Below are positions 4,103-25,833 of a DNA stretch of 64,000 nt, piece by piece; position 1 is the stretch's first letter, and every line of letters starts with the position of its first letter. The translations under genes and the position numbers were made by a program. Source of the stretch: a plasmid; the sequence record CP089609.1; one strand, 5' to 3'. The notes under the pieces are model-generated. The model ran no database searches. It worked only from the letters and a program-made list of their open reading frames with translations, and was not told the DNA's origin.

Positions 4103-4714
4103 CTATCCGCAGATGCTCGACTCGTGTTGGCGGTAGAAGGTCCGCGCGGCCGGCACCTCATCGGCGTAGGGCCCCAAGAACGCCGCTCTTTGCACTGCTT
4201 GCGCGGCAACGGCTTCCGGCATGTGTTGCCAGCCCGCGATCTTCTGCAGCGCGTCGAAGAACCGATGGGCGGCCATGCTCGGCGTCATCCGCTCGACAAC
4301 CGAACCCCAGTCTGGGCCTTGCAGAAACAGTCCCACGGCCTGGCCGTTGTCGAGGGCCAGACCGTCATGGCGCATCGCGAGGGATTCCGGCACGCGTGGG
4401 TTCGCCACATTCCGCATTCCGGTTTCACGCTGTGCGGCGATCAGTCCGGCGACGATGCCTCGCTGGGGGATCCCCATGTGTCGTCCGGTCGAGATGATCG
4501 ACACACCGTAGTCGGCCGGGCCGCTCACCTCGTGAGAGCATGGCGCCGCCGCTGTCGTCTCGGGCGCGGCGATAATGTCCGGGCTGACTATTCGAAGGCC
4601 CGCCAGCACCGGCGCGGCCAGCGCAATAACCAGGGAGGCCGCGGCGCCCAGGACCAGCCGCCGGCCGCGGCGATCGCCGCCCGCGCCCAGCACGCGCTCT
4701 TCAGGTGTGCTCAT
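4103..4714 (-). CDS. membrane-anchored/secreted hypothetical protein
   Basis: 203-aa ORF with N-terminal hydrophobic segment; ATG fused directly to a conserved promoter module (leaderless). Confidence 0.6.
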   Translation of the reverse strand: MSTPEERVLGAGGDRRGRRLVLGAAASLVIALAAPVLAGLRIVSPDIIAAPETTAAAPCSHEVSGPADYGVSIISTGRHMGIPQRGIVAGLIAAQRETGMRNVANPRVPESLAMRHDGLALDNGQAVGLFLQGPDWGSVVERMTPSMAAHRFFDALQKIAGWQHMPEAVAAQAVQRAAFLGPYADEVPAARTFYRQHESSICG

Positions 4715-4753
4715 GTCCTGAGGTATATGCCGGCACGCTCGCTGATCCGGTCA
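4712..4753 (-). promoter_or_regulatory. conserved leaderless promoter/start module copy 1 (GACCGGATC-N12-GGCATATACCTCAGGACATG)
   Basis: TGACCG -35-like and CATATA -10-like elements at 18-bp spacing; start codon 7-9 nt after -10; divergent from copy 2. Confidence 0.6.
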
Positions 4754-4800
4754 ACTGGCTGCGCCTCCGATCGAGCCGCCCGTCTCTGACGCCGGATGTG

Positions 4801-4839
4801 TGACCGGAATAATCGATGGACGGGCATATACCTCAGGGC
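4801..4839 (+). promoter_or_regulatory. conserved leaderless promoter/start module copy 2
   Basis: TGACCGGAATAATCGATGGACGGGCATATACCTCAGGGC followed by ATG at 4840. Confidence 0.6.
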
Positions 4840-5610
4840 ATGACCGTCCATACGCAGTTCGTAGCGCATACGAAGTCACTCGCGCAGCCGCCGCTGCATC
4901 CCGAGGCGGTCGACGCTCACGCGGCGATCACGGACTATTCGCGGTTCACCGTCGCCCTGGCCGAAGACAATGCCGGCCGCATGCTCTGCTGGCGACCGGT
5001 GGACTGCCCGCACCTTGCTGTCGTCGGCGACTCTGGGTGCGGCCAGACCGTCACCGTCCAAAACGCTGTGGTCCAGTTCGCGCGTGCGCATTGGGCCGTG
5101 CACGTCGCGGCGCGGTTCGACTTCGAGTACGAACAGTTCCGCGCGTGGCCGAATGTGCGGTGCATCGCCACCGATCCGGATACGCAGATCGCGTTGATCG
5201 GCCATCTGAAGCAGATTCTCCGGCAGCGGCTCCTCGCGGGTCGCACCCGTGTCCCTGCGCCGATAGTCCTGCTGGTCGACAACCTCTACGAGCTCACCGG
5301 AAATTTCTCGTTCGCCCACGCCTATTCCGGGACGCCAACCTCGGATCCAGCCACCACTGATCTCCGCCTTCTGCTGCGGTACGGCCGCCGGGCGCGCATC
5401 CATGTGCTGACAGCGACAATGCCCCGGAGCCACGCCGCCCAGCTCGACGGCGAAACCCGTGAGCATTTTGTGGAACTGCCCCTCAGCCGCCGCCATCACG
5501 GGCCCGACTTATCGGCATATCTCGACGAGGACCGCGGATTCATCGCCCACCGCAATCTCGCCGTTCTTCGACCCACGCGCACCAGCTACGAGCCGCTGGA
5601 CCTGAACTGA
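4840..5610 (+). CDS. FtsK/SpoIIIE-like degenerate NTPase-domain protein (Walker A GDSGCGQT with K->Q; Walker-B-like LLVDNLYEL; sensor IHVLTATMPRS)
   Basis: motif-by-motif resemblance to FtsK ATPase core (PHLxVxGxxGxGKS / hhhhDE / GIHLxLATQRP) but with catalytic residues substituted; leaderless start. Confidence 0.6.
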   Translation: MTVHTQFVAHTKSLAQPPLHPEAVDAHAAITDYSRFTVALAEDNAGRMLCWRPVDCPHLAVVGDSGCGQTVTVQNAVVQFARAHWAVHVAARFDFEYEQFRAWPNVRCIATDPDTQIALIGHLKQILRQRLLAGRTRVPAPIVLLVDNLYELTGNFSFAHAYSGTPTSDPATTDLRLLLRYGRRARIHVLTATMPRSHAAQLDGETREHFVELPLSRRHHGPDLSAYLDEDRGFIAHRNLAVLRPTRTSYEPLDLN

Positions 5611-5662
5611 CCGGTGCTGACCTGTTGCAACCCTTTCAGCACCAACGAAACGGAGACCCACC

Positions 5663-6229
5663 GTGACCAATCATGCTGACTTCCCCACGCGTCCAACATG
5701 GTTGACCCGCACCGTGCGTGCGGGTACAGCCCTGGTCCTGAGTGTGGGGTGCTTCGGCGCGGGATGGTGGACCGGCGCGAGGACCACCAGCGACCCGGTA
5801 GCGCACCAGGTGGCCGCCGATATGCAAACGTGCGGCGCATTCCAGGCGATTGACCACCTGGCCGATGAATCGAAGGATCCACTGTCTGGCCCCCACGGGT
5901 CGACGCAGACACACGATTTCATCGCCCTGTCCTCGGCAATGAACAACGCCCGGGCAGCAGAGCTTTCCGACTCGCTCGATGCTGCGGTCACGACCTACGT
6001 GTACGCCCTGGCGAATCTGGGTGCGGTCGTCAACGCCCGGGAGCCGATCGACGACATCGAGTCGATGCGCCTGATCGTGAATCTGAGCGCGCACACCGTG
6101 GCCACGGTATGCCAACGACCAGCCACCGATCGAACCTCGGGGACCGCCGATCACGGTGCCGATGAGGCCGCCACCCAGACGCATCGTGACGTCCACGGCT
6201 CGCAGTCCACAGCCACCGACCACCCGTGA
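5663..6229 (+). CDS. secreted hypothetical protein (signal peptide/TM)
   Basis: GTG start preceded by GGAGA RBS; N-terminal hydrophobic stretch. Confidence 0.45.
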   Translation: MTNHADFPTRPTWLTRTVRAGTALVLSVGCFGAGWWTGARTTSDPVAHQVAADMQTCGAFQAIDHLADESKDPLSGPHGSTQTHDFIALSSAMNNARAAELSDSLDAAVTTYVYALANLGAVVNAREPIDDIESMRLIVNLSAHTVATVCQRPATDRTSGTADHGADEAATQTHRDVHGSQSTATDHP

Positions 6230-6261
6230 CCCTGCCCAACACCCAACCATCGCCGCCGCGG

Positions 6262-6300
6262 TGACAGGATTGGCATGCGCGCCGGCATATACCTGTGGTC
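6262..6300 (+). promoter_or_regulatory. conserved leaderless promoter/start module copy 3 (-35 variant TGACAGG)
   Basis: GACAGGATTGGCATGCGCGCCGGCATATACCTGTGGTC then ATG 6301. Confidence 0.55.
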
Positions 6301-6807
6301 ATGACCAACGAATTCGCTGACCGCACTAAGCCGACCGAGGTCGCCAACCTGGCGGCCTATGCCACCAAAACCGGATGGGCGGTGAGTGTTCTCACGCTCA
6401 AGGACTCCACACACCACGGTATCGACGACCCCCGTATCGACATTGCCTCCACCCCCGACGACCATGTGAAGCTCATCGCCCGCCTCTATGCGCAGATGCA
6501 GCAGCGGGCCGCGGCCGAGCCCTGCCAGGATCCACCGGTTCTCCTGGTCATCGACGAGTACGCCGATGTTTCTTCCGCCTTGGAGAGCTGGAGGCAAGAC
6601 CACCCCGACGCCCAGGCCGGTCGGCAGCTGCGGGAGCTTTTCCGGCTCGGCCGCCGACAGAAGATCACCGTCATCGCCCAGAGCCGGCGGCCCGCACCGG
6701 ACTTCTTCCCCGCTGAGCAGACAGCAGACCTCACCAACCGTCGGGTAGGGCCCGGCGCGCTCCCCTACGCCGTCATCCAGCAGTACTTCGGATCATCGCC
6801 GCAGTAA
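6301..6807 (+). CDS. FtsK/SpoIIIE-like C-terminal half-domain protein (Walker B LLVIDEYADV, sensor ITVIAQSRRPAPD; no P-loop)
   Basis: paralogous to 4840, 9398 and 15556 genes; leaderless start. Confidence 0.55.
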   Translation: MTNEFADRTKPTEVANLAAYATKTGWAVSVLTLKDSTHHGIDDPRIDIASTPDDHVKLIARLYAQMQQRAAAEPCQDPPVLLVIDEYADVSSALESWRQDHPDAQAGRQLRELFRLGRRQKITVIAQSRRPAPDFFPAEQTADLTNRRVGPGALPYAVIQQYFGSSPQ

Positions 6808-6837
6808 TCGGCGCTGCCGATCACACCTGAGCGCGAT

Positions 6838-8835
6838 TCACGAGAGGCCAGGAGCCTCCGCGCCGGCCAGGACGGATCTCAGCAGCGCAGTGGCGGCGGC
6901 CACCTTGGCTGCGGTCTTGGCTGGCGCTGCCGCGGTGTACGTGACACCGGCCAACGTCGCCCTACAGGTGAACCCGTCTTCCTGAGTAGGCCCGGCCGGC
7001 GCGACATTGAACTCCACAGGGCCCAGCGACTGGCTGGCGGCAAAACCCGTCAGCCAGCCGACCGGATTGGCGAAAGCGTTCGTCCGCTTGACGTCGCTCA
7101 TGCTGGCGACTTTTCTGCGAGCCGTTTCCGGCAGGAGCATCTCCCCGACGTGCTCCGGTACAGTCGGCGCCGCCGGCGCCCCGGTCTGAGTCGTTGGCTG
7201 CAGGTTCGCTGGCACCGGGGCCGGCGGATCCGCCGGCCAGGAGACCGCCTCATCGACTGAGTCTGTGTGTCCGCACACCACGTCGAGCAGTTCCCACATC
7301 GCTTGTGTGGAGGCGGTTTTCTTCGATTCCCCGATCTGCCACCGGCCCACACCGTCCCCGAGCCGTGCGCGGGCGGCGAACAGCGGTTGATGGATTGGTC
7401 GGCTCGGATGGTTCTGTATGTCGATCTCGGCGCCCTGATCGGTGCCGAGGATCTGGGATCGACCGCTCAGTGCGCTGGGACCGAATTCGGGGTGCACCTC
7501 ACGAACTTTGGCGAAGAATCGTTTCCGGATGCCATCCCAGGCCGAGCTGGTGGTGGCCAAGCGGGCAATGTCGTTGGCTACCAGTAGATTTTCATCGAGC
7601 CGGCGGCACAGTTCGGCCTCGATTCCCGGCGCGGGTCCGGTGGCGGTCATCAGGTCGAACATCTTGCGCCACTGCTTTTGATCGAGCGCATCGTAGTTTC
7701 GGTCCAGGATGTGTCGCGCGCTGACTTTGCGGCTCATCTGCTTGAAATGGTCGGCGGTCTCGTTTCGTTTGGCGTCGTTGGATGCGTTGATTTCCGTGGC
7801 GATCGCCGCCAGTTCGTCGGAGCTGTAGACGGCCGGTCCTCCGGCAAGGTGATTCCACACAATCCGTTGAGTGATCAGGTCGGCATAGCGGCGCAGTGGG
7901 GAGGTCACATGGGCGTAGGCGGGCAACCGCAGACCGTGGTGCCCTCGCGGCCGCGGTTCATAACGGGCGCGTCCGAAGGTGCGGGTGACCCGCTGCGCGA
8001 GCTGCTCGAACAACCCTGGATCGTGCAGCGCCGCAGCGAGGTCGGCGGCGATTTCGCGGCCATCGCTGAGCAGGTTGGATTGGTGATTGCGGTAGAGGAC
8101 TTCCAGTCCCTCGTCGATGCACCAATCGGCCAGGGCGCTACTGGCTGCGACCATCAGTTCGGTGTTGATGAGATATCCCACGGTGCGTTGAGCCGGGGGA
8201 ATTTCGGTGAGTTGGCCGTCCTCGGTCACGGTGATTCCGTGGACGAGGTCGTACACGGTGGCCGCACCGGCGGCTGAGCGTCTGGCGAACAGCTGCTGGG
8301 CCAGCCGGTGCGCGGCGTCGAGCATCGGGTTCAGCTGATGCCCTTGCTCATGCAGCACCTTGGGGACGTCCTTGTAGGACAACCGTATGCACGTCCCGGC
8401 GGGCAGAAAGCTCTGGCGCACCGACACCTCGGTGCGTTGCCCGGTGGCATCGAACACCGCTGCGATGGTCAGTGCCGAGCGATCCAGACGGTCGGACAAT
8501 GTGACCTCACGCTCGACTTCGCCGAGCATCGGAATGGTTCTACGTGGCAGATATCGTGAGGCCACCCGGGCCCGGGCCAGCCGATCGTGCTCGCTGTCGC
8601 GCGCGATAACAGCCGCTGTGGCGGCGACGTGAACGGTCAGATTCCATCCTCCGTCAGCGATGGGCTCGACGGTCAGGGCATCGTCAAGGTCGATACTGCC
8701 CGCAGGATCGATCATCACTGCTGACCCGCGCCATTGTCGGCCGGACGCGTTGGGGCAGCTCGCGGTCGCAGTTGGACCGGGTGCTGGTGTCGAGTGGATT
8801 TCGGTCACGGTTTCGGCAGGTCGTTCGCAGCGCAC
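6838..8835 (-). CDS. RNB-family 3'-5' exoribonuclease (RNase II/R-like) with C-terminal dsRBD-like domain
   Basis: RNB hallmark HVTSPLRRYADLITQR and DLDDAL motif; C-terminal GPVEF...GFTC...G...A.AKTAAKVAAATALL resembles a double-stranded RNA-binding motif; no N-terminal CSD/S1. Confidence 0.7.
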   Translation of the reverse strand: MRCERPAETVTEIHSTPAPGPTATASCPNASGRQWRGSAVMIDPAGSIDLDDALTVEPIADGGWNLTVHVAATAAVIARDSEHDRLARARVASRYLPRRTIPMLGEVEREVTLSDRLDRSALTIAAVFDATGQRTEVSVRQSFLPAGTCIRLSYKDVPKVLHEQGHQLNPMLDAAHRLAQQLFARRSAAGAATVYDLVHGITVTEDGQLTEIPPAQRTVGYLINTELMVAASSALADWCIDEGLEVLYRNHQSNLLSDGREIAADLAAALHDPGLFEQLAQRVTRTFGRARYEPRPRGHHGLRLPAYAHVTSPLRRYADLITQRIVWNHLAGGPAVYSSDELAAIATEINASNDAKRNETADHFKQMSRKVSARHILDRNYDALDQKQWRKMFDLMTATGPAPGIEAELCRRLDENLLVANDIARLATTSSAWDGIRKRFFAKVREVHPEFGPSALSGRSQILGTDQGAEIDIQNHPSRPIHQPLFAARARLGDGVGRWQIGESKKTASTQAMWELLDVVCGHTDSVDEAVSWPADPPAPVPANLQPTTQTGAPAAPTVPEHVGEMLLPETARRKVASMSDVKRTNAFANPVGWLTGFAASQSLGPVEFNVAPAGPTQEDGFTCRATLAGVTYTAAAPAKTAAKVAAATALLRSVLAGAEAPGLS

Positions 8836-9054
8836 GCATTGGTGACGGGAAGCGTCGCGATCATCGTGTCGAATCGCCTTCTTTGATCTCGACGTGACGC
8901 GTCATAGCTGGTGACTCTCCTTCACATCCCCTGTGGTTGTACCGGCCAGGGTGACCCAATTCTGGTCATCGTCTCATTGGCGATTGTTTCCGCGACAGCC
9001 GATTCGTCGGCTGGACAGCAACACCCGCCACTACCAGCGGATTCACCCACGGCG

Positions 9055-9077
9055 GATACACCGCATTCGGTCTATAT
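9055..9077. promoter_or_regulatory. palindromic operator copy 1 (GATACACCgcattcGGTCTATAT, one mismatch)
   Basis: inverted repeat of TATACACC/GGTGTATA family in RNB-gene upstream region. Confidence 0.4.
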
Positions 9078-9194
9078 TTGCCACCACCCCTGTCCGCCCT
9101 CCTCGATGGCGGCGCGAGAGGGGCGATCGCACAGACCCCGTCCGCCCGTGCTCTTGAAAGACCCCATGCCACCCGAAAACCGGCAGCCCTGGAC

Positions 9195-9233
9195 TGACCG
9201 GATCAGCCAACCCTGTGGCATATACCTCAGGTC
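9195..9233 (+). promoter_or_regulatory. conserved leaderless promoter/start module copy 4
   Basis: TGACCGGATCAGCCAACCCTGTGGCATATACCTCAGGTC then GTG 9234. Confidence 0.55.
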
Positions 9234-9368
9234 GTGACCACCACTCCCACGCTCCCTGCCGACTGGGCCATCCGGATCCGTCCCATGCCGCGGCGTGAAT
9301 CGCTCGCACGCACCGCGCACGCACTGCGCCGCCTCAACAAGGCACCCGCACGCGGCCAAGACAACTGA
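9234..9368 (+). CDS. small leaderless ORF (44 aa, Arg-rich)
   Basis: GTG at the conserved module position; ends TGA 9366-9368. Confidence 0.3.
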   Translation: MTTTPTLPADWAIRIRPMPRRESLARTAHALRRLNKAPARGQDN

Positions 9369-9397
9369 CCCCGACACCCTTCAGGAGAAACCACCGC

Positions 9398-10315
9398 ATG
9401 GCCTACGAACGCTGGACACCCATCGCCGCGCAGAGCAACAACTGCTCCCCGCACACCTGGATCCTCTCCTGGGACCGCGACGTCGAATCTCTGCGGGCGG
9501 CGGCGCTGGCCGCCGCCTGGCAGTGGCACCTCGCCCTCGACACCACCCGGAACCACCAGCTCGTCATCGACCTCCATCAGCTCGCGGCCACCCGCTACGC
9601 CGACTACCGCGACGCCTCGACACACGACCGAAACCGCTACCTCAGCACCGTCGAGCACGTGATTCTCGCCGTAGGCCCAGGCTTCGACTGCACCAACCGC
9701 CACCTCCGGTGGATCGCCCGACTCGGCCGCACGACAGGCATTCATCTCGCCGTCGACTCCCGCCACCGCGACGACCCACTGGTAGCCGACGAGTTCATCG
9801 ACAACATCAACGGCTACTGGACGCCCATCCCCAGTGAAACCTCATATCCCAGCAGCTATAGCTATGTCAGCACCGGAGCATTACAGATCCTCACCGACAC
9901 CACCCGAGCTCATGCCGCCACGATTGACGCTCGCGCCTCGGCACTTGACACCATGTTCGCCGGCGCCGCACGCAGTGCACAGCACCTCGTCGACGCGAAC
10001 CCGCTTTCCCCCGACGATCCCCGCATCCAAGCGGTCATTGCCGCGGCCAAAAACCAGCGGTGGCGGGTCACACCGTACAACGCCGGTCGCTGCGATTTCA
10101 TCCATGACGCCAGTGACACCGCGGTGGTGGTGCGCTGGGGCACCGAGCAGCATCCGGTGCGCTACGCGGCCACCGGCCCTGTAGATGCTGAGCGCGGAGC
10201 CGACCGTCGCACCCTGGTCTCGGCCGGCAGCCCGGCCGACGGTGACCCCATCGCCGCGCTGGTGCGGTTCTTCACGCAAGCGCCCCGGCCTGACACGAAC
10301 ACGTTGAGCGAATAG
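9398..10315 (+). CDS. FtsK/SpoIIIE-derived degenerate domain protein (HLRWIARLGRTTGIHLAVDSRHRDDP)
   Basis: paralog of 15556..16902 (PHTWIxxWDxxVExLRAAALAA...RYLxxVxHVxxAVGPG...LRWIAR.G.xTGIHLAV). Confidence 0.55.
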   Translation: MAYERWTPIAAQSNNCSPHTWILSWDRDVESLRAAALAAAWQWHLALDTTRNHQLVIDLHQLAATRYADYRDASTHDRNRYLSTVEHVILAVGPGFDCTNRHLRWIARLGRTTGIHLAVDSRHRDDPLVADEFIDNINGYWTPIPSETSYPSSYSYVSTGALQILTDTTRAHAATIDARASALDTMFAGAARSAQHLVDANPLSPDDPRIQAVIAAAKNQRWRVTPYNAGRCDFIHDASDTAVVVRWGTEQHPVRYAATGPVDAERGADRRTLVSAGSPADGDPIAALVRFFTQAPRPDTNTLSE

Positions 10316-10374
10316 TCACGAAGTGCCCAAACCATCGCAGCTGGAGGACAGGACACTGGACCAACAACGATAGT

Positions 10375-10399
10375 TGTATACACCCTTTTAGGTGTATTG
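10375..10399. promoter_or_regulatory. palindromic operator copy 2 (TGTATACACCcttttaGGTGTATTG)
   Basis: inverted repeat 116 bp upstream of 10515 gene. Confidence 0.5.
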
Positions 10400-10514
10400 T
10401 TTGATCGGTTGCCACCCCATCTCATCTGCGCAGCCGCACGAGGCCTTCGCGGGCGCGAACCATGTTGCCAGGCAAGCCGGATTCGCCCGCCACGACGACA
10501 GGAGCACTCTTTTG

Positions 10515-10805: not shown

Positions 10806-10825
10806 CCACCAAGGAGATACGTCCG

Positions 10826-11778: not shown

Positions 11779-11838
11779 CTGCGCTGTTCCATGACATTCG
11801 TTACAGGAAAAACGAGCGGGGTAAGGAGCGAAAACCCA

Positions 11839-12516
11839 ATGGACGTAACAACAGTCACGAGTCCTGACGCACTGGAAATGCTCACCGACGACAAGGAGAG
11901 TCGCCATGCGGATCTTACGTTGATCGGCGGCCCCGCCAGGGTGGGGAAGACAACTTTGGCCCGGCGCTGGACCGCAACTAGGCCAGCGGAGCTTGTACAC
12001 CTTGATCACCTTCTTCACGCCGTAGCTGCGGTCGCCACGGGGGATGAACTCAGTGCGCTGCGACAAGCGCCGAGCATCACCACTCACAGCCCAGAGCAGT
12101 GGTTAGCCGGACTGCGTGAACGTGACGAAGTGCTCTGGAAGGCGGCGGGAGCTTATTCCACGGCCGCGAAGAGTGGCTTGGTCTTGGAAGGCGGACTCTG
12201 GCCCGACTGGGTAGCCAACATCAGCCGGCCTCATGCGGCGATCTTCATCGTAGACACTGGTGACAGTGCCGATCGCCTGGTCGACATCACGCGCGCTGAC
12301 CCGCATAGCTGGATGGCTCAACGCCGATGGCCGGAGGAAAAGATCCGGAAGTGGGCGTGCTACAACATGTTCCGCAGCACGGTCATCGCCGAACTTGCAG
12401 ATCGTCATGGCTATCCCGTCTTCGATATCGCCGACGGCATAGCTGCAGCCCAGGACAAAGCACTCGCGTACCTCGCGACCATCACAAGTGCAGGGATGAC
12501 TGTTCATGAGCATTGA
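11839..12516 (+). CDS. P-loop nucleoside/polynucleotide kinase-like protein (GGPARVGKTTLAR)
   Basis: Walker A near N-terminus; AAGGAG RBS 11 nt upstream of ATG 11839. Confidence 0.6.
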   Translation: MDVTTVTSPDALEMLTDDKESRHADLTLIGGPARVGKTTLARRWTATRPAELVHLDHLLHAVAAVATGDELSALRQAPSITTHSPEQWLAGLRERDEVLWKAAGAYSTAAKSGLVLEGGLWPDWVANISRPHAAIFIVDTGDSADRLVDITRADPHSWMAQRRWPEEKIRKWACYNMFRSTVIAELADRHGYPVFDIADGIAAAQDKALAYLATITSAGMTVHEH

Positions 12517-15516: not shown

Positions 15517-15555
15517 TGACCGGATCTCCGAAACCCCGGGCATATACCTGTGGGC
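15517..15555 (+). promoter_or_regulatory. conserved leaderless promoter/start module copy 5
   Basis: TGACCGGATCTCCGAAACCCCGGGCATATACCTGTGGGC then ATG 15556. Confidence 0.6.
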
Positions 15556-16902
15556 ATGAGCAACATGTCGACTCAGGCGACGACACTGGATGCCTTCAAC
15601 GACGCCCCGCACACCTGGATCGAATGCTGGGATGAGGAGGTCGAGCCGCTGCGAGCCGCGGCGCTGGCCGCCGGCTGGACGTGGCATTGCGTTGATACCT
15701 CCGAGGATCTCCCGGCCCTGCTCTGGGCCCTTGAGCTCGCCAGTTCCCGCCACCAGAACCTCATGCCGGCAGAGCGCCGGCGCTATCTGGCGGCGGTCGG
15801 CCACGTCGTGATCGCCGTCGGCCCCGGCTACCAGGGCAGCTACCGCTATCTGAGGTGGATTGCACGGGCGGGAGCGCGCACCGGAATTCACCTGGCTGTC
15901 GCTGCCAGCCACCGTCGAAACCCCCTGGCCCCTCAGGATCTCAAGGACGGCATCACCGATCCACCGAGTGCGTACGTGGGCCCGGTGTCCGGCTGCGCAG
16001 CCGCCGCGCGGTCCAGCGAGCACCCGTGGCTGCCCACGTCGCCCGATGGGCACGGGCCCGACGACTACAGCGCACCGGCGGCCGGTCTCCTGGGTGCCTT
16101 CCGGCATCGCCTGCGCCGGCGTCGTAACGCCGATCGTCGAGTCCGTCCAGAGCAGCGGGTGTGTTCGGAATCGGATCTGGCTTGGCTCGATGACGATCCT
16201 CGGGTTCAGCTGATCGTCGCTACGGCCACGCGCGAGGGATGGCGCCGTGAACCTGGCGCCCAGACGGCTGTGTGGCGGTTCGTGCACGACATCGGGACAA
16301 CCCTCACGGTGCACTGGGGGACTCCGGAGATGCCGCTACTTCACGCCGCAGCGACCGCGACGGCGACGGTACGTTGGGGCGCCGTCACCTTGCCCGTCCT
16401 GGTAGCTGCCGGCGACACCGCCAGCAGCCCGGCCGACAACATCGTCTTGGCTTGCGACGCCGACGCCCAGTGGATCGAATCGCAGATCGATCGGGTTCAG
16501 AACTTTCTCCGTAGCCATCCCGCCGAATATCGCGTCATGTCCCAGATCTCGGCCGACCCGCGCGCGCGTTCGGTGATCAATACCGCTGAGCAACACGGCT
16601 GGGAAATTCACCCGCACGACGTGGACAGGTGCACCTTCGCCCGAGGTGGAACCGAGATCTGGCTTCGCTGGGGCATCATCGATTGCCCATGGCCATTCCT
16701 CTATGCGCACACCGCCCCGCACGGCGATGGGCCCTCCGTCTACCTCTCTCATGGGGATGATCCTCCCGAGGAGCAGCTCGTGGCCATGCTGCGATTCCTC
16801 GCGGCCCCAGACACCGGCCCAACAGGCGCTTCCTCCAATGCAATCGAGCCGAAAGGCCACAGCTTCGAGTTAGGAGACACATCACTCAATACACCTAAAT
16901 AG
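15556..16902 (+). CDS. FtsK/SpoIIIE-derived degenerate domain protein (448 aa)
   Basis: paralog of 9398..10315 over the first ~130 aa (LRWIARAGARTGIHLAVAASHRRNP). Confidence 0.6.
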   Translation: MSNMSTQATTLDAFNDAPHTWIECWDEEVEPLRAAALAAGWTWHCVDTSEDLPALLWALELASSRHQNLMPAERRRYLAAVGHVVIAVGPGYQGSYRYLRWIARAGARTGIHLAVAASHRRNPLAPQDLKDGITDPPSAYVGPVSGCAAAARSSEHPWLPTSPDGHGPDDYSAPAAGLLGAFRHRLRRRRNADRRVRPEQRVCSESDLAWLDDDPRVQLIVATATREGWRREPGAQTAVWRFVHDIGTTLTVHWGTPEMPLLHAAATATATVRWGAVTLPVLVAAGDTASSPADNIVLACDADAQWIESQIDRVQNFLRSHPAEYRVMSQISADPRARSVINTAEQHGWEIHPHDVDRCTFARGGTEIWLRWGIIDCPWPFLYAHTAPHGDGPSVYLSHGDDPPEEQLVAMLRFLAAPDTGPTGASSNAIEPKGHSFELGDTSLNTPK

Positions 16903-16910
16903 GTGTATTG
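16887..16910. promoter_or_regulatory. palindromic operator copy 3 (CAATACACCTAaaTAGGTGTATTG, 11-bp arms)
   Basis: perfect inverted repeat 72 bp upstream of ligase gene. Confidence 0.55.
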
Positions 16911-16981: not shown

Positions 16982-18076
16982 ATGACCGCCGTCACTGATG
17001 TGTTCAGCGAAGACGAACTCGAGGCCGCCATCGGCAGCGGGTTCATCGAGTCTTTCCGGCATCCTCAGCTGCCACTGACCATCTACAACTACACCGAACG
17101 CGCCCAGTTTGAGACCGCCTGGAACGCCGCCACCCGCGCGTGCCGGGGCCTCATCGTCAACGACGATCGCCGGATCGTCGCCCGCCCCTGGGCGAAGTTC
17201 TTCGAGTACAAGCCGGTAGGCGGACAACACGGCCCCGTGGACCTCGACGCAGCTGTCGAGGCCACCGATAAGGTCGACGGATCTCTGGGCATCCTTTACC
17301 CCGCCGGCCACACGTGGGCGATCGCCACCCGTGGATCCTTCACCGGCAACCAGGCCGCTCACGCCACCACCCTCTATCAGCAGCGCTACGCCGGCGCCTG
17401 GTCCCCTGATCCCGAACTGACCTACTTGTTCGAGATCGTCTATCCGGACAACCGGGTCGTCCTGAACTACGGCGACACAGACGATCTCGTCCTTCTCGGC
17501 GCTTGCCGCATCGCTGACGGTGCATCCGTTACAGCAAGTTCGATCGGCGACTGGCCGGGGCCGCGTGCACAGACTCTGCCGGTCACAACCCTTCGCGATG
17601 CGTTGGCCTTCCCAGACCGGGCCAACGCCGAGGGCCTCGTGGTGACCGTGGTGGAATCCGGCCTCAAACTCAAACTCAAACAACGCGATTACGTACTCCG
17701 GCATCGCATGGTCACCGGGATGTCGGCGCTGGCGGTATGGGAGTACTTGGCCACGGGTGCGGGGATTTCAGGTCTGATATCGGATGGGCACCTTCCCGAC
17801 GAGCTCCACGACTGGGCCCGCGCCGTTGTCGCCGAGCTGCAAGGCCAGCATCTCGCGCTCAAAGATGCCGCCGAACAGGCACATGCAGAGATCATCGCGC
17901 GCCTCGAACCCGGGCACACCCGAAAGGACTATGCCGCCGAGGCTGTCAAACACGCTGACCTGAAAGGCTTCCTGTTCGCGCTCGCGGACGGGCGCCTGGA
18001 CAAGTTCGAGGCTGCGTTGTGGAAGTCCGTTCGACCTGATGCCAACGAACTGCGCTCCGAAGGGGCTTCCCGATGA
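16982..18076 (+). CDS. ATP-dependent polynucleotide (RNA) ligase-like nucleotidyltransferase
   Basis: motif I KVDGS, motif IV EGLVV, motif V LKLKLK; N-terminal RGLIVNDDRRIVARPWAKFF typical of Rnl-type RNA ligases. Confidence 0.7.
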   Translation: MTAVTDVFSEDELEAAIGSGFIESFRHPQLPLTIYNYTERAQFETAWNAATRACRGLIVNDDRRIVARPWAKFFEYKPVGGQHGPVDLDAAVEATDKVDGSLGILYPAGHTWAIATRGSFTGNQAAHATTLYQQRYAGAWSPDPELTYLFEIVYPDNRVVLNYGDTDDLVLLGACRIADGASVTASSIGDWPGPRAQTLPVTTLRDALAFPDRANAEGLVVTVVESGLKLKLKQRDYVLRHRMVTGMSALAVWEYLATGAGISGLISDGHLPDELHDWARAVVAELQGQHLALKDAAEQAHAEIIARLEPGHTRKDYAAEAVKHADLKGFLFALADGRLDKFEAALWKSVRPDANELRSEGASR

Positions 18077-19122: not shown

Positions 19123-19145
19123 CATACACCGCTTCGGGTGTATAG
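19123..19145. promoter_or_regulatory. palindromic operator copy 4 (CATACACCgcttcgGGTGTATAG)
   Basis: 42 bp upstream of 19187 gene. Confidence 0.5.
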
Positions 19146-19522: not shown

Positions 19523-19532
19523 GAGAAACGCA

Positions 19533-19703: not shown

Positions 19704-19708
19704 CTGAC

Positions 19709-20179
19709 ATGTCCACACAGCCCAGGACGAGGCCGCTGACCGACAACCAGCTCGAAGTGCTGCGTCAGTTCGGTTCCGAGACCGGCTGGCTGCGGCCACT
19801 GGACCTCGGCGGGAGTAACCGCTCCAACCACAGCGCGGTCCTGGCGCAGCTGCAACGCCGCGGCCTCGTCGACTCGAAGGTCCGCTCACACGGCGTACGA
19901 GGCTCCAAGCTCTACAGGATCACTCCCGCCGGCCGCCACGCACTCCTGACTCGCACCACAGCGGTGAACACGCCAGGAGGCGTGGAACACGGCGGGTCTG
20001 AATCCACACCCCAACATCGCCCTACCACCGCCGCCCGGTGCCGCGCACTCGCCGACCAGCTGGACACAGCGGACCCGACCAAAGCATCGAACTACCGCCA
20101 GTTCGCCGACGCGCTCGACCACAAAGACATGGGCGCAATCTGCGCCGTCAGTGCATCCATCAACCACACCGTCGGCTGA
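19709..20179 (+). CDS. winged-helix transcriptional regulator (MarR/PadR-like)
   Basis: LTDNQLEVLRQFG...SAVLAQLQRRGLVDSKVR...YRITPAGRHAL pattern. Confidence 0.55.
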   Translation: MSTQPRTRPLTDNQLEVLRQFGSETGWLRPLDLGGSNRSNHSAVLAQLQRRGLVDSKVRSHGVRGSKLYRITPAGRHALLTRTTAVNTPGGVEHGGSESTPQHRPTTAARCRALADQLDTADPTKASNYRQFADALDHKDMGAICAVSASINHTVG

Positions 20180-20193
20180 ACCACGGAGGCGAC

Positions 20194-20643
20194 ATGGACC
20201 CGATCGATCACGTTGTTCGTACATCATTGCCTTGGCGCAGTGAATCTTTGACCGAATGTGGGCGAGGACTCAACGATGTCGGCTCAGCGATCACTCAGCA
20301 AAAGCTCCACGAGCGCGTCAAGGAGTACGGCGCGCAGCGTACCGCGTTCACCGTGTGCATGACGTGCTGGACGACGGCCTCAGCACACCGGGAAACCTGG
20401 GAATCTGACCCCATCGCAGTGCTCTACCGAGAGGCGCAGCGCGCTGGAGGCGCACTGGTGAGCCCGCGCTCCGACAGACCGGAACGAGTACTACTGACAG
20501 CGGAACTGCGGGCCATTGCAGCACTGATCGAGGCGCATCGCGACGAGTTCGATCATTACATCGCCAGCCTGGCCGAAACGGCAAGCCTCGACGCCGTGCG
20601 GAACGCACGTAGATCGAGTCAACTACGCCGCGCCCCTCGCTAG
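20194..20643 (+). CDS. hypothetical protein
   Basis: ATG 20194 preceded by GGAGG; 149 aa. Confidence 0.5.
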   Translation: MDPIDHVVRTSLPWRSESLTECGRGLNDVGSAITQQKLHERVKEYGAQRTAFTVCMTCWTTASAHRETWESDPIAVLYREAQRAGGALVSPRSDRPERVLLTAELRAIAALIEAHRDEFDHYIASLAETASLDAVRNARRSSQLRRAPR

Positions 20644-20680
20644 ACCGGCCCGAACCCCGTACGAGGAAAGAGATTCCGCG

Positions 20681-21603
20681 ATGTCCACCCGCTGGTTGAG
20701 CCCCTTGCGGTACCCCGGCGGAAAAGGGCGCATGGCCGACGCGTTAGCCGACGTGTTCCAACAGCAGTTCGGTCTGCTCGACGTCGAAGTATGGGCCGAG
20801 CCATTCGCCGGCGGCGCGGGGGCCGGACTGCATCTGCTCGATCGCGGCGTCGTCGACGAGGTCTGGCTGACCGAGAGAAACCCGGCCCTGGCCGCGTTCT
20901 GGCGCACCACCACCACCAACAGCGACGAACTGGCCGCGCGGGTCCGCACATGCCAACCCGACATGTCCACCTGGCACGCCGCGCGCGAGATCGTCGCGGA
21001 GGCGCGGACTGGCGCCGAGATCGCCGATCTCGACCTCGCATTCGCCGCCCTTCTCATCAACCGGTGCTCACGTTCAGGCATGGTCAACCCCAGTGTCGGC
21101 CCGATCGGCGGCAAGAACCAGAACGGCCGCTGGCACCTTCGCTCCCGATGGAACCCCGAGGGCCTGTCCGAACGCATCGATTCGATCGGACGGCTCGGCA
21201 ACCGGATCCGCGTCAGCGAAGGAGATGCGATCACACACATCGCGGAGTTGAACGGATCGGTGGGCATTGAGCACGAGCTCCTGCTGTTCGTCGACCCGCC
21301 CTATCTGGTCCAGGGCAACAAGCTTTATCACGACGGTATGACCTTCGACGACCACAAGAACCTCGCCGAGGCACTACCAACTGCGCAGCTCGCTGGCTGC
21401 TCACCTACGACAGCGACGAACGCATCCTCGGCCTCTATCCGGGCCATCGCATCCTGGCCTACGAGATCGCCCACACCGCTAACCAGGCCCGCATCGAAGA
21501 GGAATACGCGGTCCTATCCGACAATCTCGCGGTCCGCGACGACCAAAACCTACTCACCACGGGCGCATCCCGATGGGTCCAGCACGAGCCCACGCACAAC
21601 TAG
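20681..21603 (+). CDS. Dam-like N6-adenine DNA methyltransferase (D12 class) with apparent -1 frameshift near 21385
   Basis: LRYPGGK and FVDPPY motifs in first frame; C-terminal ARWLLTYDSDERI...stop TAG 21603 in second frame. Confidence 0.6.
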
Positions 21604-21629
21604 TCCACCCCGCGAGGAAGGAAACCCGC

Positions 21630-21860
21630 ATGTCAACACCCACCGGCGACCACGAATGGACTAGCGAAGCTGTCGACGGCGCATCTCTAGTCCACCTGGC
21701 CCGCCTCGCAACGGCCGGCGACCAGACCGACATCGTCATGTACGTCCGCAGGCAGGCACACCGGCTCCGCACCCGGGCCCCACAAACGTCACAAGCGCTC
21801 ACCGCACTGATCGACGGAGCTGCCCCGCCTCCCAGCCCGCTACGTGGTGCAGCAACATGA
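21630..21860 (+). CDS. hypothetical protein (76 aa)
   Basis: GGAAGGAAA RBS then ATG 21630. Confidence 0.45.
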   Translation: MSTPTGDHEWTSEAVDGASLVHLARLATAGDQTDIVMYVRRQAHRLRTRAPQTSQALTALIDGAAPPPSPLRGAAT

Positions 21861-22177
21861 GCTCGCCGCTAACCAGGTCAGGATGGGCACTCGGCGGCCT
21901 CTCGACAGCGCTCATCTTGGCGACCTTGTCAGCGCCGATCGCCGCAGCAGCCAAGGTGGAGCCGACCCCGCCCGAGCCCTCACATTGTCGGGTACCGCTA
22001 CAGCTGATCGGCGATACGGCTGTCATGCCTCCGGATCCGCGGTTCGACTGGAGAAAGTGGCTCGACACAGCCCCAGACGATGCGGATCTCCCATGTGATC
22101 CAGACGCGGTATTCGGCGGCACCCTGCCGGCACACATGATCCCGTCATGGGTTCTCGATGAACTGCTGCGGAGATAA
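21857..22177 (+). CDS. secreted hypothetical protein (signal peptide)
   Basis: ATGA overlap with preceding gene; N-terminal signal-like segment. Confidence 0.5.
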   Translation: MSSPLTRSGWALGGLSTALILATLSAPIAAAAKVEPTPPEPSHCRVPLQLIGDTAVMPPDPRFDWRKWLDTAPDDADLPCDPDAVFGGTLPAHMIPSWVLDELLRR

Positions 22178-22219
22178 AACACCCAGTGCGCGAACACAGT
22201 TGAAAGAAAGGGACTGAAC

Positions 22220-22732
22220 ATGACGATATGGCTCATGTCTGTCGCGCTGACCACCCAGGCAGTGCGGGACCGCCAGAAAACACAAACCCGCAGAGCCGGT
22301 TGGCGGCACCTCAAAGAAGGTGATCAGCTGGCCCTGTGTCCGAAAGTTCGCGGCGTCCGCCGCGACAATCGCGAGCTGATCACCATCGTCGATGTCGTTT
22401 CAGTGCGCCGGGAGCTGCTGCGGGCGATCACAGCAGAAGACGTTGTTGCCGAAGGCTTCCCGAATCTCACCACAGCTGACTTCATCACGTTCTTCTGCGA
22501 CAGCCACCGCGGTGTCCGACCGGAATCGGAAATCACGCGCATCGAATGGGCCTATCCCCGCCTGTGTCGACAGTGCCGCTGCACGGAGTACGCCGCATGC
22601 ACAACAATCACTGGACCGTGCAGCTGGCGAACAACATATGACGACAACACCGGCATCTGCACCGCATGCACCGCTGCCGCGACCACAAGGCAACTCGATT
22701 TGTCGGAACGTCGAGGGAGGATGGGAGTATGA
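22220..22732 (+). CDS. ASCH-like domain protein with Cys-rich C-terminal tail
   Basis: KTQTRR...LKEGDQLAL resembles ASCH core; tail CRQCRCTEYAACTTITGPC...CTAC. Confidence 0.45.
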   Translation: MTIWLMSVALTTQAVRDRQKTQTRRAGWRHLKEGDQLALCPKVRGVRRDNRELITIVDVVSVRRELLRAITAEDVVAEGFPNLTTADFITFFCDSHRGVRPESEITRIEWAYPRLCRQCRCTEYAACTTITGPCSWRTTYDDNTGICTACTAAATTRQLDLSERRGRMGV

Positions 22733-23190
22733 CGAAGGAATTTGACGAGTTGCCGCCCGTTTCGGCGGCGCCGTTGTCACGAATCCGTCGCGGGTTCATC
22801 GTCGCGGAAGGGTGCGTGATTGGCCTTTTGGCGGGGACTGCGGCGGCAGTCCTCGCGCTATCAGTGGCACCGTGGGTGGTGAGGTTGATCGCGTCTGTAT
22901 CGGCGGGGGCGATCGGCGATCGACCGGCAGAGGCGGCGTCATTCAGCGGGGGCCCACCCTGGTTTATGTGGCTGACCGGAGTGGTCGTTGGCCTGTTCGG
23001 AGCCGGGATCGTTGGATTTGAGGCGATCGAGAAACGTATCGCTGAAGCCAAGCTGCGTGTGCATGTCGCCATGTACCGCAACGTCATTGAAGAACACATG
23101 CGCAGCGAAGCTGCGCTGAGAAAACCCCACGACGACTACGCCCCGAGCCAGGATGATCGCCGTCGCCCCGACGCGGTTGGCGGCGACTGA
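22729..23190 (+). CDS. membrane protein
   Basis: ATGA overlap at 22729-22732; hydrophobic helices. Confidence 0.45.
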   Translation: MTKEFDELPPVSAAPLSRIRRGFIVAEGCVIGLLAGTAAAVLALSVAPWVVRLIASVSAGAIGDRPAEAASFSGGPPWFMWLTGVVVGLFGAGIVGFEAIEKRIAEAKLRVHVAMYRNVIEEHMRSEAALRKPHDDYAPSQDDRRRPDAVGGD

Positions 23191-23277
23191 CGATTCGAGC
23201 ATAGGCAACACCTACGCCCATGACCGCCCAGCTGAACGACCACGAAATGTCAGACCTGTCCAGGAGAATTCAGACCC

Positions 23278-23775
23278 ATGAAGATTTCCAATGGCGAACC
23301 GCGGAGTGAACGGCTAATTCGAGCCCTGGCCGCTGTCGGTGGGTGCGCGATCCTCGTCGCATCTGTGCTAACGACGATCAAGCTGATCGCTTGGCTACAG
23401 GCCTCGGCTTCGGCGTTTAGCACTCTGGATGCGGCAATCGCAGCATTTGCATTGTGCGGACTGGTCACCGCCGGCTTGATCGCTCTGTACATTTTCCAAC
23501 GAGGATCAGTTGGGGCACGCCGTATCGGTGCGTTACTCACCGATACGGCACCGGGACAGGTCCTTGGCGGACTGATCGGACTTGTCCTCGCCATCGCCTC
23601 AATCTCTACCGCGGCCGCCGCCGCGCAAGGGTGGGGATCATGGTTGATATCGGTCTTGTCAGCCGTGTTCTGGGGCGCTGTGGGACTGCGCGAGCTGCGC
23701 AACGGGTGGCGCCAATGGGCATCGCGCCGCGACGACTTGCGTAATGGCCCTGCGATCGAGCGTATTCCGGAATAG
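23278..23775 (+). CDS. membrane protein (4 TM)
   Basis: 165-aa hydrophobic ORF. Confidence 0.5.
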   Translation: MKISNGEPRSERLIRALAAVGGCAILVASVLTTIKLIAWLQASASAFSTLDAAIAAFALCGLVTAGLIALYIFQRGSVGARRIGALLTDTAPGQVLGGLIGLVLAIASISTAAAAAQGWGSWLISVLSAVFWGAVGLRELRNGWRQWASRRDDLRNGPAIERIPE

Positions 23776-23833
23776 ATGGCCAAGACCACCCCGACCGCAC
23801 ACCAGCACTGGCGTTGAGAGGGAGATGATCGCT

Positions 23834-24166
23834 ATGGACGTGAACATGTTTCCCGTCATTGACAACCGCGGGCAACTAGAGGAACTCACCGGCCGCCAGG
23901 CCACGACGTCCGTCTGGACCGCAGTCGTTGTCGACCGACAAGGCGACGTGTTTGGGACGTACTTGGGCAATGGAACATGGACCGAACTGGGCTCGGCCGT
24001 CCCCTTCTGTCTGAGCGGACGGATAGCTCTGCCCGCACGCTTGGTGGCAGGCCAGGCATCCGAGCGCCCTCAGACCGCCCGCGTAACCAACGTGGCGGAA
24101 CACAAGGTCGGTCTGCCCAAGCAGCTTTCGTCGCCACAGACCGCTGACGTGTCTTTGCTCGACTGA
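23834..24166 (+). CDS. hypothetical protein
   Basis: GGGAG RBS upstream of ATG 23834. Confidence 0.4.
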   Translation: MDVNMFPVIDNRGQLEELTGRQATTSVWTAVVVDRQGDVFGTYLGNGTWTELGSAVPFCLSGRIALPARLVAGQASERPQTARVTNVAEHKVGLPKQLSSPQTADVSLLD

Positions 24167-24183
24167 GTGGATTTCAGATCCAC
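24167..24183. promoter_or_regulatory. short palindrome GTGGATttcagATCCAC
   Basis: 6-bp inverted repeat between 23834 gene stop and HTH gene; possible operator or weak terminator. Confidence 0.25.
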
Positions 24184-24297
24184 CCACAGTCACCACCTCG
24201 ATTCCCACGATCCGAACGGCTTGCAACGCCCCTGGACAGCGGCCGCAAACATGGTGTGCACACTTGTGCGGCACAACTGTGCGTAAAATCTGGGCAC

Positions 24298-25209
24298 ATG
24301 CCTGACAACTACGTCCGCGGCTTCGATCAACGAGCGGACTACCTGACCGCCACCGCCCAGCTCTACCTGAGCACTCAACAGGTCGCCGACCGTCTCGGCA
24401 TCACCCGTGACGTGCTACAGCACCAAATCCGCGACGGCGACTTCATCGCACCCGACGTCGTCGTCGGCGAACGCGGGATCCAAGGCTGGTCACCCGCTCG
24501 CATCGATGAGGTCCGCCTAGAGAGAATGGGCAACTCGGTAGACATCGACCCTGACAAGGTGTTCGCCGAACTCAACCACCTACGCGCCGCGGCCGAAACA
24601 CTTCGCGCCTACATCCGTGATGACGATCGAGCCGAGCCCATCCACCGGCTCCCATACGATCTGCACAGGCTGTGCGCGGCAATCGAAAACTCCGTCCGGG
24701 ACATGATGACCGTCCACGAGGAGTTCCTCACACAGATCGAACCTGAACGGGCTACGGGCCAACCCCGGCGCATGCCAGTCGCGTGCCAATCCCCCGACCT
24801 GATCATTCCCGACCCATCGACCAATGACCGCCTCCGGATCCATCAACTCAGCACCGCGGTAAAGGTTCTGGAGTCGGTGATTCAACAGATTCCCACGATA
24901 TTCGCGTCGAAACCTGGCCGTGAAGCCTTGCGCAAACTGCAGAACTACCGGTCCGAGATCGCCACCTATATCGACAAACTTAAGGCCCGCCCGGGCCAGC
25001 ACGACGTCGTGCGGCTACTGCAACCGTTGCCCGAGCACAGCATCGCCGCTGGCACCGAAGGCACCGTGGAGACGGTTCACGACCACAGCTACCAGAGGAA
25101 ACCACCAGCCTACGAAGTGAAATTCTCCGACTCCGACGGCGCGACACTGGCAACGGCGATCCTTGGGCCTGAAGACGTCGAAGTCACCTGGCGATGGACC
25201 GCCGTCTGA
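24298..25209 (+). CDS. HTH (Xis/MerR-like) DNA-binding protein with DUF4926-like C-terminal domain
   Basis: LYLSTQQVADRLGITRDVLQHQIRDGDF HTH; C-terminal VVRLLQPLPEH...YEVKFSDSDG. Confidence 0.5.
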   Translation: MPDNYVRGFDQRADYLTATAQLYLSTQQVADRLGITRDVLQHQIRDGDFIAPDVVVGERGIQGWSPARIDEVRLERMGNSVDIDPDKVFAELNHLRAAAETLRAYIRDDDRAEPIHRLPYDLHRLCAAIENSVRDMMTVHEEFLTQIEPERATGQPRRMPVACQSPDLIIPDPSTNDRLRIHQLSTAVKVLESVIQQIPTIFASKPGREALRKLQNYRSEIATYIDKLKARPGQHDVVRLLQPLPEHSIAAGTEGTVETVHDHSYQRKPPAYEVKFSDSDGATLATAILGPEDVEVTWRWTAV

Positions 25210-25260
25210 CCGACAAGTCCCCTTTCTCACCCCGACACTGACAATTGGATCGCCCACTGC

Positions 25261-25299
25261 TGACCGGATCGCCGGACCAGCCGGCATATACCTCCGGGC
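25261..25299 (+). promoter_or_regulatory. conserved leaderless promoter/start module copy 6
   Basis: TGACCGGATCGCCGGACCAGCCGGCATATACCTCCGGGC then ATG 25300. Confidence 0.6.
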
Positions 25300-25713
25300 A
25301 TGTCCACACATACACATACAGAAATAACGCCGACCGACAGCGATAGGCATCGCCACGAATTCCCGGTGGTAGAGACGGTATTGACCCTCGCAGTGACGCT
25401 GACTCCACTGGTGTGGGCTATGACGTCGGCGCCGACGCGCGGCATCTCGACCACGGGATCGTTTGTTGATGCGGTGTTCCCCTTCCCCGCCGGCACCTAT
25501 ACCGCATTCCTCGTCTTCGGGATCAGCCTCGTCCTCGGCGTCAGAATCGCTGTCAGAGCCGCGCGCACCTCGACAAGACTGCTGACCGTCACGGCGACCG
25601 TGCTCCTGGTCACCGCCGTTTCCCTCACAGTGAATGGCTTGTTCGGCATCGCGAGTGATACAGGCGGCATCTGTGTGGGATGTCCAGTGCACCCTTACCC
25701 TACGGCTCACTGA
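25300..25713 (+). CDS. membrane protein with C-terminal ICVGC motif
   Basis: leaderless; paralog of 25948 gene. Confidence 0.55.
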   Translation: MSTHTHTEITPTDSDRHRHEFPVVETVLTLAVTLTPLVWAMTSAPTRGISTTGSFVDAVFPFPAGTYTAFLVFGISLVLGVRIAVRAARTSTRLLTVTATVLLVTAVSLTVNGLFGIASDTGGICVGCPVHPYPTAH

Positions 25714-25794
25714 AAGTCAGGCACCGGGCCGCCTGCCACACTGAAACGCACGGCATTGCCCCCGGCCCGCCGTTGCCGATGTTCACCTCGCCGG

Positions 25795-25833
25795 TGACCG
25801 GATCACCGAATCGGCCGGCATATACCTCAGGTC
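25795..25833 (+). promoter_or_regulatory. conserved leaderless promoter/start module copy 7
   Basis: TGACCGGATCACCGAATCGGCCGGCATATACCTCAGGTC then ATG 25834. Confidence 0.6.

Follow-up and report, generated by a model that had tools for sequence, protein, structure and literature searches.

A conserved two-box module, probably a plasmid-family promoter, ahead of putatively leaderless genes on a large Mycolicibacterium plasmid

Seven copies of a 42-bp module lie directly before genes in a 64-kb stretch of plasmid DNA (sequence record CP089609.1), which was searched on both strands and is called the window below. The module consists of an 11-bp sequence, GGCATATACCT (box2), of a second conserved sequence upstream of it (box1) and, in the window, of a start codon at a fixed distance downstream. 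This conserved signal is real and previously undescribed; signals of its kind are familiar, and it adds a new version to them. We consider it probable that the module is a bipartite promoter specific to one plasmid family. Literature searches by sequence string and by topic returned no description of the motif; a survey of the Mycolicibacterium mobilome does not mention promoters (PMC8190616), and the supplement of mapped M. smegmatis start sites holds no such sequence.

Two conserved boxes and an adjoining start codon

Box2 occurs exactly seven times in the window, at 4721-4731 on the minus strand and from 4823, 6284, 9217, 15539, 25283 and 25817 on the plus strand, where about 0.03 exact occurrences of an 11-mer would be expected by chance in 2 x 64 kb. 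A preliminary description of this DNA had placed the seven copies correctly to the base, and all were found exact. Seven further matches with one or two mismatches compare with 5.5 in shuffled sequence. Because these inexact matches stay at the shuffle level and all lack box1, the perfect copies are sharply separated from the background; when the two boxes were searched together, the next candidates after the seven copies appeared only at five mismatches. A degenerate copy that had been proposed at 1015-1034 has only ATATACCTCAGG in common with the module, without GGC, box1 or a start codon at the proper offset, and sits within a DUF6166 gene (905-1402, minus strand); we do not count it.

Box1, nTGAC(C/A)GGA(T/A), lies 14 nt upstream of box2 in all seven copies, across a spacer of variable sequence. 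It reads exactly GACCGGATC in five of them and differs by one mismatch in the other two, GACCGGAAT at 4802 and GACAGGATT at 6263; apart from the five copies, GACCGGATC is found at an isolated site at 29388, and it is single everywhere, with no arrays. Exactly 6 nt after box2 comes ATG (six copies) or GTG (at 9234), and the stretch between box and codon reads SNGGNC in the alignment. Every copy is intergenic and directed into an open reading frame (ORF) on its own strand, and the first two copies form a back-to-back pair (4712-4842).

With the A or G of the start codon taken as +1, a profile was built from 32 distinct copies, several of which are orthologues of one another and not independent events. 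Box2 occupies -17 to -7 and is invariant in all 32, and box1, TGACCGGAWY at -39 to -30, is nearly so. At position -1, 30 copies have C and two have T, at +1, 29 have A and three have G, and weak conservation extends into +4 to +7; upstream, at -57 to -53, the A/T content is 47-69% (above 60% at three of the five positions) against roughly 30% around. When 30 distinct exact box2 copies were inspected, box1 was present within one mismatch at 29 and with two mismatches at the remaining one. The boxes are separated by 14 nt in 27 copies and by 15 nt in two, so that their centres are ~23.5 bp apart, a spacing that fits the geometry of a putative two-element sigma-type promoter.

The stretch common to the copies is short, only ~45-52 bp, with similarity that reaches from ~5 nt ahead of box1 to the first few nt of the ORF, and the proteins encoded behind the modules are unrelated to one another. 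The module is not part of a larger mobile repeat, which the preliminary description had named as a finding that would speak against a promoter. The same description had called the module portable, and it does precede unrelated genes; portability itself would be a further step, as no mechanism of spread was seen. In two syntenic contigs (L174 and L176), with an FtsK-like protein 80-82% identical, every module is kept at the orthologous site. The spacers diverge in these ~80% relatives, for example AATAATCGATGGAC against TCCGCCGATGGCC, and substitutions and indels are abundant between the back-to-back pair and upstream of the copy at 9195.

Module-led starts have no Shine-Dalgarno sequence, since the 6 nt between box2 and the codon cannot hold one. 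Predicted pairing with the 3' end of 16S rRNA averages -2.9 kcal/mol at these starts against -5.5 kcal/mol at the other window genes, and AGGAG-type sites are seen at many internal ones. Public gene calls take the module's start codon for the genes of 203, 168 and 448 amino acids (aa), and five orthologue pairs start at their own module copy, with alignments that begin at residue 1 or about 11. A 44-codon ORF behind the copy at 9195 keeps its frame in L174 and L176: the 3-nt indel there is in frame, the stop codon is the same, and the start is ATG. Leaderless transcripts make up about a quarter of mycobacterial mRNAs (PMC6448022, PMC4633059), and short leaderless first ORFs of operons have been described in mycobacteria (bioRxiv 10.1101/834739). 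Mapped starts of M. smegmatis prefer C at -1 and A or G at +1 (PMC6448022), and the 32 copies agree with this SigA-type preference. A mycobacterial mRNA counts as leaderless if its leader has at most 5 nt and, judged from sequence, the mRNAs of most copies most likely begin at the AUG or GUG and are leaderless.

In three copies, all in relatives, the ATG lies 42-43 nt downstream, behind an AAGGA or AAAGGG Shine-Dalgarno sequence in a ~36-nt leader, and the pyrimidine-purine step at -1/+1 is kept. Because these copies have a distant ATG with its own Shine-Dalgarno sequence, the boxes act independently of the start codon; the leaderless layout appears to be usual but optional, and the start codon a frequent, non-obligatory neighbour of the boxes. 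The idea of a single promoter-plus-start unit is therefore upheld in part: the signal stands at unit heads and is fused in the window to starts without Shine-Dalgarno sequences, and the start codon is not an obligatory component.

In the mechanism that we propose, RNA polymerase would start at the +1 purine and, as this is the purine of the codon, the mRNA would begin with AUG or GUG in most copies. Such mRNAs would be translated without a Shine-Dalgarno sequence, in the leaderless mode common in mycobacteria, and in a few copies the same promoter would feed a leader that carries one. The module would head seven transcription units over roughly 4-39 kb and an eighth that begins shortly before the window. 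Between the two box1 sequences of the back-to-back pair there are only 47 poorly conserved bp in which any other promoter could lie.

Recognition of the module and rival explanations

The preliminary description had read the module as a sigma-70 promoter with TGACCG as -35 and CATATA as -10, a reading at odds with the consensus. In M. smegmatis, ANNNT is found at -13 to -6 in 79% of mapped promoters, TANNNT being the preference of SigA, and mycobacterial SigA promoters have no -35 consensus genome-wide (PMC6448022). Since box2 is without ANNNT or TANNNT, ordinary SigA recognition is doubtful, and a conserved box1 at a fixed distance of 14 nt (rarely 15 nt) departs from the rule that SigA promoters lack a -35 consensus. 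SigF promoters carry GGGTA in the -10 region (PMC6448022), and GGGTA is absent from box2 in 32 of 32 copies. Comparison with promoters of extracytoplasmic function (ECF) sigma factors gives a mixed picture. In these, a -35 similar to GGAAC is separated by about 16-17 nt from a -10 of the CGT type. The module is like them in its conserved two-box layout and in the sequence at -34 to -30, the place of the ECF -35, where about a third of copies have GGAAC and the others GGATC or GGAAT; it is unlike them in that box2 is 11 bp long, A/T-centred and without a CGT-type -10, and no ECF sigma gene was detected in the sequence searched.

A module that fails the SigA rule and has a strong box1 therefore probably needs another sigma factor or an activator. 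Its reader should be very conserved, because box2 is identical across elements whose proteins are only 32-47% identical. From these sequence properties we infer that recognition would depend on a very conserved factor beyond the plain SigA -10, either an alternative sigma factor or an activator, encoded by the host or by the plasmid. The stronger proposal, that the 11-bp box is read by a dedicated sigma factor or activator (plasmid-encoded or host-conserved) in an orthogonal, self-contained leaderless expression system, is a tentative one, possible rather than probable.

Several observations weigh against the promoter reading. No A followed by a T four bases later exists within -17 to -6 in any of the 32 copies, a result that holds for every choice of start from -4 to +1, and none of the seven window copies is recognised by a scanner for the sigma-70 consensus. 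Sigma and WhiB-type genes were sought in the 64-kb window, in the preceding 8.4 kb and in ~140 kb from related loci, which together are part of replicons 100-240 kb long, and none was found. Searches with phmmer for RpoE, SigW and WhiB1 gave no matches in the window or the related loci, and Pfam comparison of ~90 window ORFs and 129 ORFs of related loci gave no sigma factor among the 25 of 46 matched families listed. The start codon adjoins the module, without a Shine-Dalgarno sequence, in 29 of the 32 copies, of which 25 came from a scan pattern that demanded a start codon; in a less biased subset of 15 copies the adjacent start codon is present in 12. Finally, GGCATATACC is self-complementary at 8 of 10 positions, its two asymmetric positions being invariant and box1 having no symmetric partner, and it may be the site of a repressor or activator that overlaps the promoter.

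This last point underlies the main alternative, in which the promoter is of the ordinary SigA kind and owes its invariance to an operator that overlaps it, GGCATATACC being the near-palindromic site of a plasmid-encoded repressor or activator. Candidate readers exist, as the window encodes several helix-turn-helix (HTH) proteins: an HTH_17 and DUF4926 protein (24256-25209), a weak PadR-like match (19709-20179), and HTH_3 and MarR-like matches. Eleven bp that stay invariant across diverged elements are also typical of sites read by proteins. The alternative nevertheless leaves SigA without any ANNNT in -17 to -6, and it has to explain a nearly invariant box1 where SigA promoters have no -35 consensus (rules in PMC6448022). 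The two asymmetric positions of the half-palindrome never shift towards symmetry in 32 copies, and the sequences of box1 and box2 are unrelated, so that they do not form the two half-sites of a dimer. We regard this explanation as unlikely.

The conserved block could instead be an RNA-level or translation signal within a longer 5' untranslated region, with transcription starting further upstream. The start-associated sequences (SAS) of cluster K mycobacteriophages are a precedent: a Shine-Dalgarno-like core stands before start codons, also between cistrons. As with SAS, a short conserved sequence is repeated upstream of many start codons of one mobile element, at a fixed distance directly before them, and its weak conservation into +4 to +7 would suit such a role. 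The module, however, has no Shine-Dalgarno sequence and pairs poorly with the 3' end of 16S rRNA, CCTCC being the anti-Shine-Dalgarno sequence itself; it is found only at unit heads, including the divergent pair, where 47 unconserved bp are all that is left for other promoters, and three copies stand 42-43 nt from a start codon that is preceded by a Shine-Dalgarno sequence of its own. Box1 at -39 to -30 and the pyrimidine-purine pair at -1/+1 suit promoter geometry, and no Rfam family matched in the window, where the Rfam and tRNA scans were both empty. An RNA-level signal is thus very improbable. Scarcely credible is a boundary or recombination site of mobile gene cassettes, of the kind seen in integrons, miniature inverted-repeat transposable elements or insertion sequence ends, that owes its spread to mobility. 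The same 42 bp before unrelated genes and the partial dyad symmetry of GGCATATACC would agree with it; but there is no homology beyond ~50 bp, there are no terminal inverted repeats or target duplications, no integrase was found beside any window copy, the copies are stable at orthologous positions in L174 and L176, and their orientation is always that of the downstream gene.

Four narrower readings were rejected. On the reverse strand, a Shine-Dalgarno sequence plus ATG would have a spacing of only 2 nt, and this Shine-Dalgarno sequence is unconserved; for a hairpin across box2, the flanking CCGG pairs are unconserved; for a MerR-type long-spacer promoter, the spacer is unconserved; and TraB/FtsK-type (clt-like) recognition repeats consist of several direct 8-bp repeats, whereas the module sites are single.

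Read as a promoter, the module resembles mycobacterial leaderless units in the ATG or GTG at the inferred +1, the C at -1, the purine at +1 and the missing Shine-Dalgarno sequence, and also in that two copies head short ORFs (44 and 36 codons) before genes led by Shine-Dalgarno sequences. In typical leaderless promoters (T)ANNNT lies at -13 to -6 and a -35 consensus is lacking, whereas the module has an invariant 11-bp box without ANNNT together with box1 and, unlike them, is repeated almost identically before unrelated genes. Element-specific promoter families are also well known from phages and plasmids; examples are conserved promoters that a phage-encoded or alternative sigma factor recognises, and the kil-kor regulons of Streptomyces plasmids. 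The module is like these in that many near-identical promoters on one mobile element head co-oriented gene blocks, and in its absence from host chromosomes at the stringency of a scan of one genome per species. It is unlike them in its fusion to the start codon, and no cognate sigma factor or regulator was found in the sequence searched. Its element is a large mycobacterial plasmid of the type IV secretion system (T4SS)/ESX type, for which the literature searches found no such signal.

Transcription units headed by the module

The copies and the genes that they head are as follows.

4712..4753, minus strand: copy 1, with box1 TTGACCGGATC, a 14-nt spacer, GGCATATACCT, CAGGAC and ATG at 4714-4712
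4103-4714, minus strand: gene of copy 1, 203 aa, hydrophobic N-terminal segment; the public gene call has the same start
4801..4842, plus strand: copy 2, ATG at 4840
4840-5610, plus strand: gene of copy 2, 256 aa, weak FtsK_SpoIIIE/AAA match; then a gene at 5663-6229
6262..6303, plus strand: copy 3, box1 variant TGACAGGATT, ATG at 6301
6301-6807, plus strand: gene of copy 3, 168 aa
9195..9236, plus strand: copy 4, GTG at 9234
9234-9368, plus strand: short ORF of copy 4, 44 codons, followed by an AGGAG Shine-Dalgarno sequence
From ATG 9398, plus strand: second gene of copy 4, 305 aa, in a same-strand gene run to ~14.3 kb
15517..15558, plus strand: copy 5, ATG at 15556
15556-16902, plus strand: gene of copy 5, 448 aa; the public gene call has the same ATG
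16982-18076, plus strand: RNA ligase gene downstream of it, in a same-strand run to ~25.2 kb
25261..25302, plus strand: copy 6, ATG at 25300, heading 25300-25713 (137 aa)
25795..25836, plus strand: copy 7, ATG at 25834
25834-25944, plus strand: short ORF of copy 7, 36 codons
From ATG 25948, plus strand: second gene of copy 7, 90 aa, with a long same-strand run of small genes after it

Two of the seven window units are thus headed by short ORFs, each placed before genes led by Shine-Dalgarno sequences. An eighth perfect copy was found on the same replicon 6.7 kb upstream of the window start (L169:1616-1657). There the stop codon of the gene before it overlaps box1, and the ATG leads into a 395-aa protein, the public gene call for which begins 45 nt further upstream (410 aa).

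The orthologue of the copy 2 gene in M. hubeiense (47% identity) starts at its own module copy. Within the spacer of copy 2 there is an in-frame ATG (4816-4818), which is kept in the ~80% relatives and is used by gene callers, giving 264 aa; the M. hubeiense orthologue is without this spacer ATG, and its start is the module codon. In an otherwise identical public contig (L171:14768-16195), a 476-aa gene stands behind copy 3 instead of the 168-aa gene, which suggests a rearrangement or insertion directly behind this copy. A 90-nt direct repeat, 78% identical, links 9439-9528 with 15597-15686; the proteins of 305 and 448 aa, encoded by the first long genes after copies 4 and 5, consequently have a paralogous N-terminal domain (PHTWI..WD..VE.LRAAALAA.W.WH).

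Two short segments of the window resemble parts of an 855-aa VirB4-like AAA_10 ATPase, the gene for which has the module at its head in relatives: 9261-9341, which makes up the body of the 44-codon ORF, resembles residues 308-334, and 42503-42643 resembles residues 443-488. The segments may be remnants of a transfer ATPase that was disrupted, now ~33 kb apart with other genes between them.

The plasmid family and the significance of the module

Several proteins of the window are identical or more than 90% identical to those of a 220-kb Mycolicibacterium fortuitum plasmid (LT337_ locus tags), and they match a 240-kb contig of M. conceptionense as well. The replicon is a large plasmid of the M. 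fortuitum/conceptionense type, from a family of 100-240 kb. Megablast of 12 kb against phage and PLSDB collections gave no match, protein searches of PLSDB gave only 28% matches in M. avium and M. paragordonae plasmids with uninformative context, and comparison with PHROGs gave almost nothing.

The distribution of the module was determined by scanning one genome per species (185,579 species) with the pattern GGCATATACCTNNGGNCRTG. Matches with box1 at the right distance were found in only seven Mycobacterium genomes, clustered on few contigs; these genomes include M. hubeiense (four scaffolds, with at least seven copies on one), M. sphagni, M. pinniadriaticum, a Mycobacterium metagenome-assembled genome and two further strains. 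A motif search in related genomes had been recommended in the preliminary description, and it located the module in these genomes and, in relatives, at orthologous sites. All non-mycobacterial matches lack box1, and matches in other phyla are for this reason attributed to chance. Viral contigs gave four motif matches, none with box1, and a concatenate of 14 motif variants searched against PLSDB gave only chance matches, in rhizobial and Burkholderia plasmids. A metagenome scan with the two boxes only returned, among the matches listed, mostly chance matches, chiefly in one conserved gut-bacterial gene, and family-like variants in L126 and L156 only. A metagenome contig that encodes a 42%-identical homologue lacks the module, and its genes are preceded by ordinary Shine-Dalgarno sites.

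Near the copies of the relatives lie genes for a VirB4-like AAA_10 ATPase, TcpC, NlpC/P60, ParB-N, FtsK-like ATPases, EccA1 and PPE. Genes of this kind form the marker set for calling conjugative plasmids in Mycobacteriaceae (PMC8190616; PMC4173767). Apart from a few genes, the only DNA common to the window and these loci is the 45-50-bp module.

A second motif accompanies the module in the plasmid family. This is a 7-6-7 palindrome, ATACACC-N6-GGTGTAT, with nine exact intergenic copies in the window where none is expected:

Exact copies: 1461-1480, 10378-10397, 16889-16908, 19124-19143, 29096-29115
Exact copies, continued: 31975-31994, 34775-34794, 53340-53359, 61297-61316
Degenerate copies: 9056, 15226, 41926, 41996

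It stands mostly just behind gene ends or between cistrons, often followed by TANNNT-like TATTGT or TATAGT, and occurs also in M. hubeiense, M. sphagni and the syntenic relatives. The palindrome is a candidate operator that overlaps SigA-type promoters; alternatively it may act as an RNA hairpin or a terminator. Since its copies range from 1.4 to 61 kb, the window as a whole may be a single element.

Most window ORFs match no family. Those recognised encode an RNB exoribonuclease, an Rnl1-type RNA ligase, an AAA_33 kinase-like protein and a D12 DNA methyltransferase, together with deaminase-like, PemK, PIN, Fic and HTH proteins; from ~43 kb on there follow P450, a TetR regulator, methyltransferases and ThiF-nitroreductase. 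RNA- or DNA-modifying cargo, including the RNB nuclease with its dsRBD-like tail, was located at 6838-8835, 11791-12516, 16982-18076, 20681-21664 and 29214-30628; the D12 methyltransferase is an orphan, and the position of PemK was not resolved. Toxin-type genes lie at 54247-55251 and 56352-57275, and HipBA and HigBA just upstream of the window (L169:2964-4678 and 7583-8189). This cargo resembles a plasmid defence, anti-defence or establishment region. Beside the divergent pair lies a gene for an 804-aa protein (1639-4053) without Pfam or PDB match, the C-terminus of which (LLVAIDGFAD ... GIHVVLCGP) looks like a degenerate FtsK/SpoIIIE-type ATPase motif; in the search for a cognate factor it was rejected as a polymerase. 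Two further proteins gave no useful PDB match. A 559-aa ORF (39631-41310) weakly matches the Cas12f1-like TNB domain as well as transposase families of the IS605 type, and may be a TnpB-like insertion near the junction of the same-strand gene run and the metabolic genes.

For annotation, the module means that gene callers mis-start some module-led genes and miss short, putatively leaderless ORFs. Being 42 bp long, apparently specific and with its start codon at +1, it is a natural test case for leaderless initiation in mycobacteria, and it might be used as an expression part. Plasmids of the T4SS/ESX type are common in the M. fortuitum group, and they form a poorly studied family. A near-invariant signal that heads at least eight transcription units defines a plasmid regulon and gives a handle for finding its regulator. 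If the module is indeed read by a dedicated factor, the units of the plasmid would be switched on together, as might be needed for establishment or anti-defence genes after conjugative entry, and the 100-240 kb T4SS/ESX-type Mycolicibacterium plasmids would have an orthogonal expression system in common.

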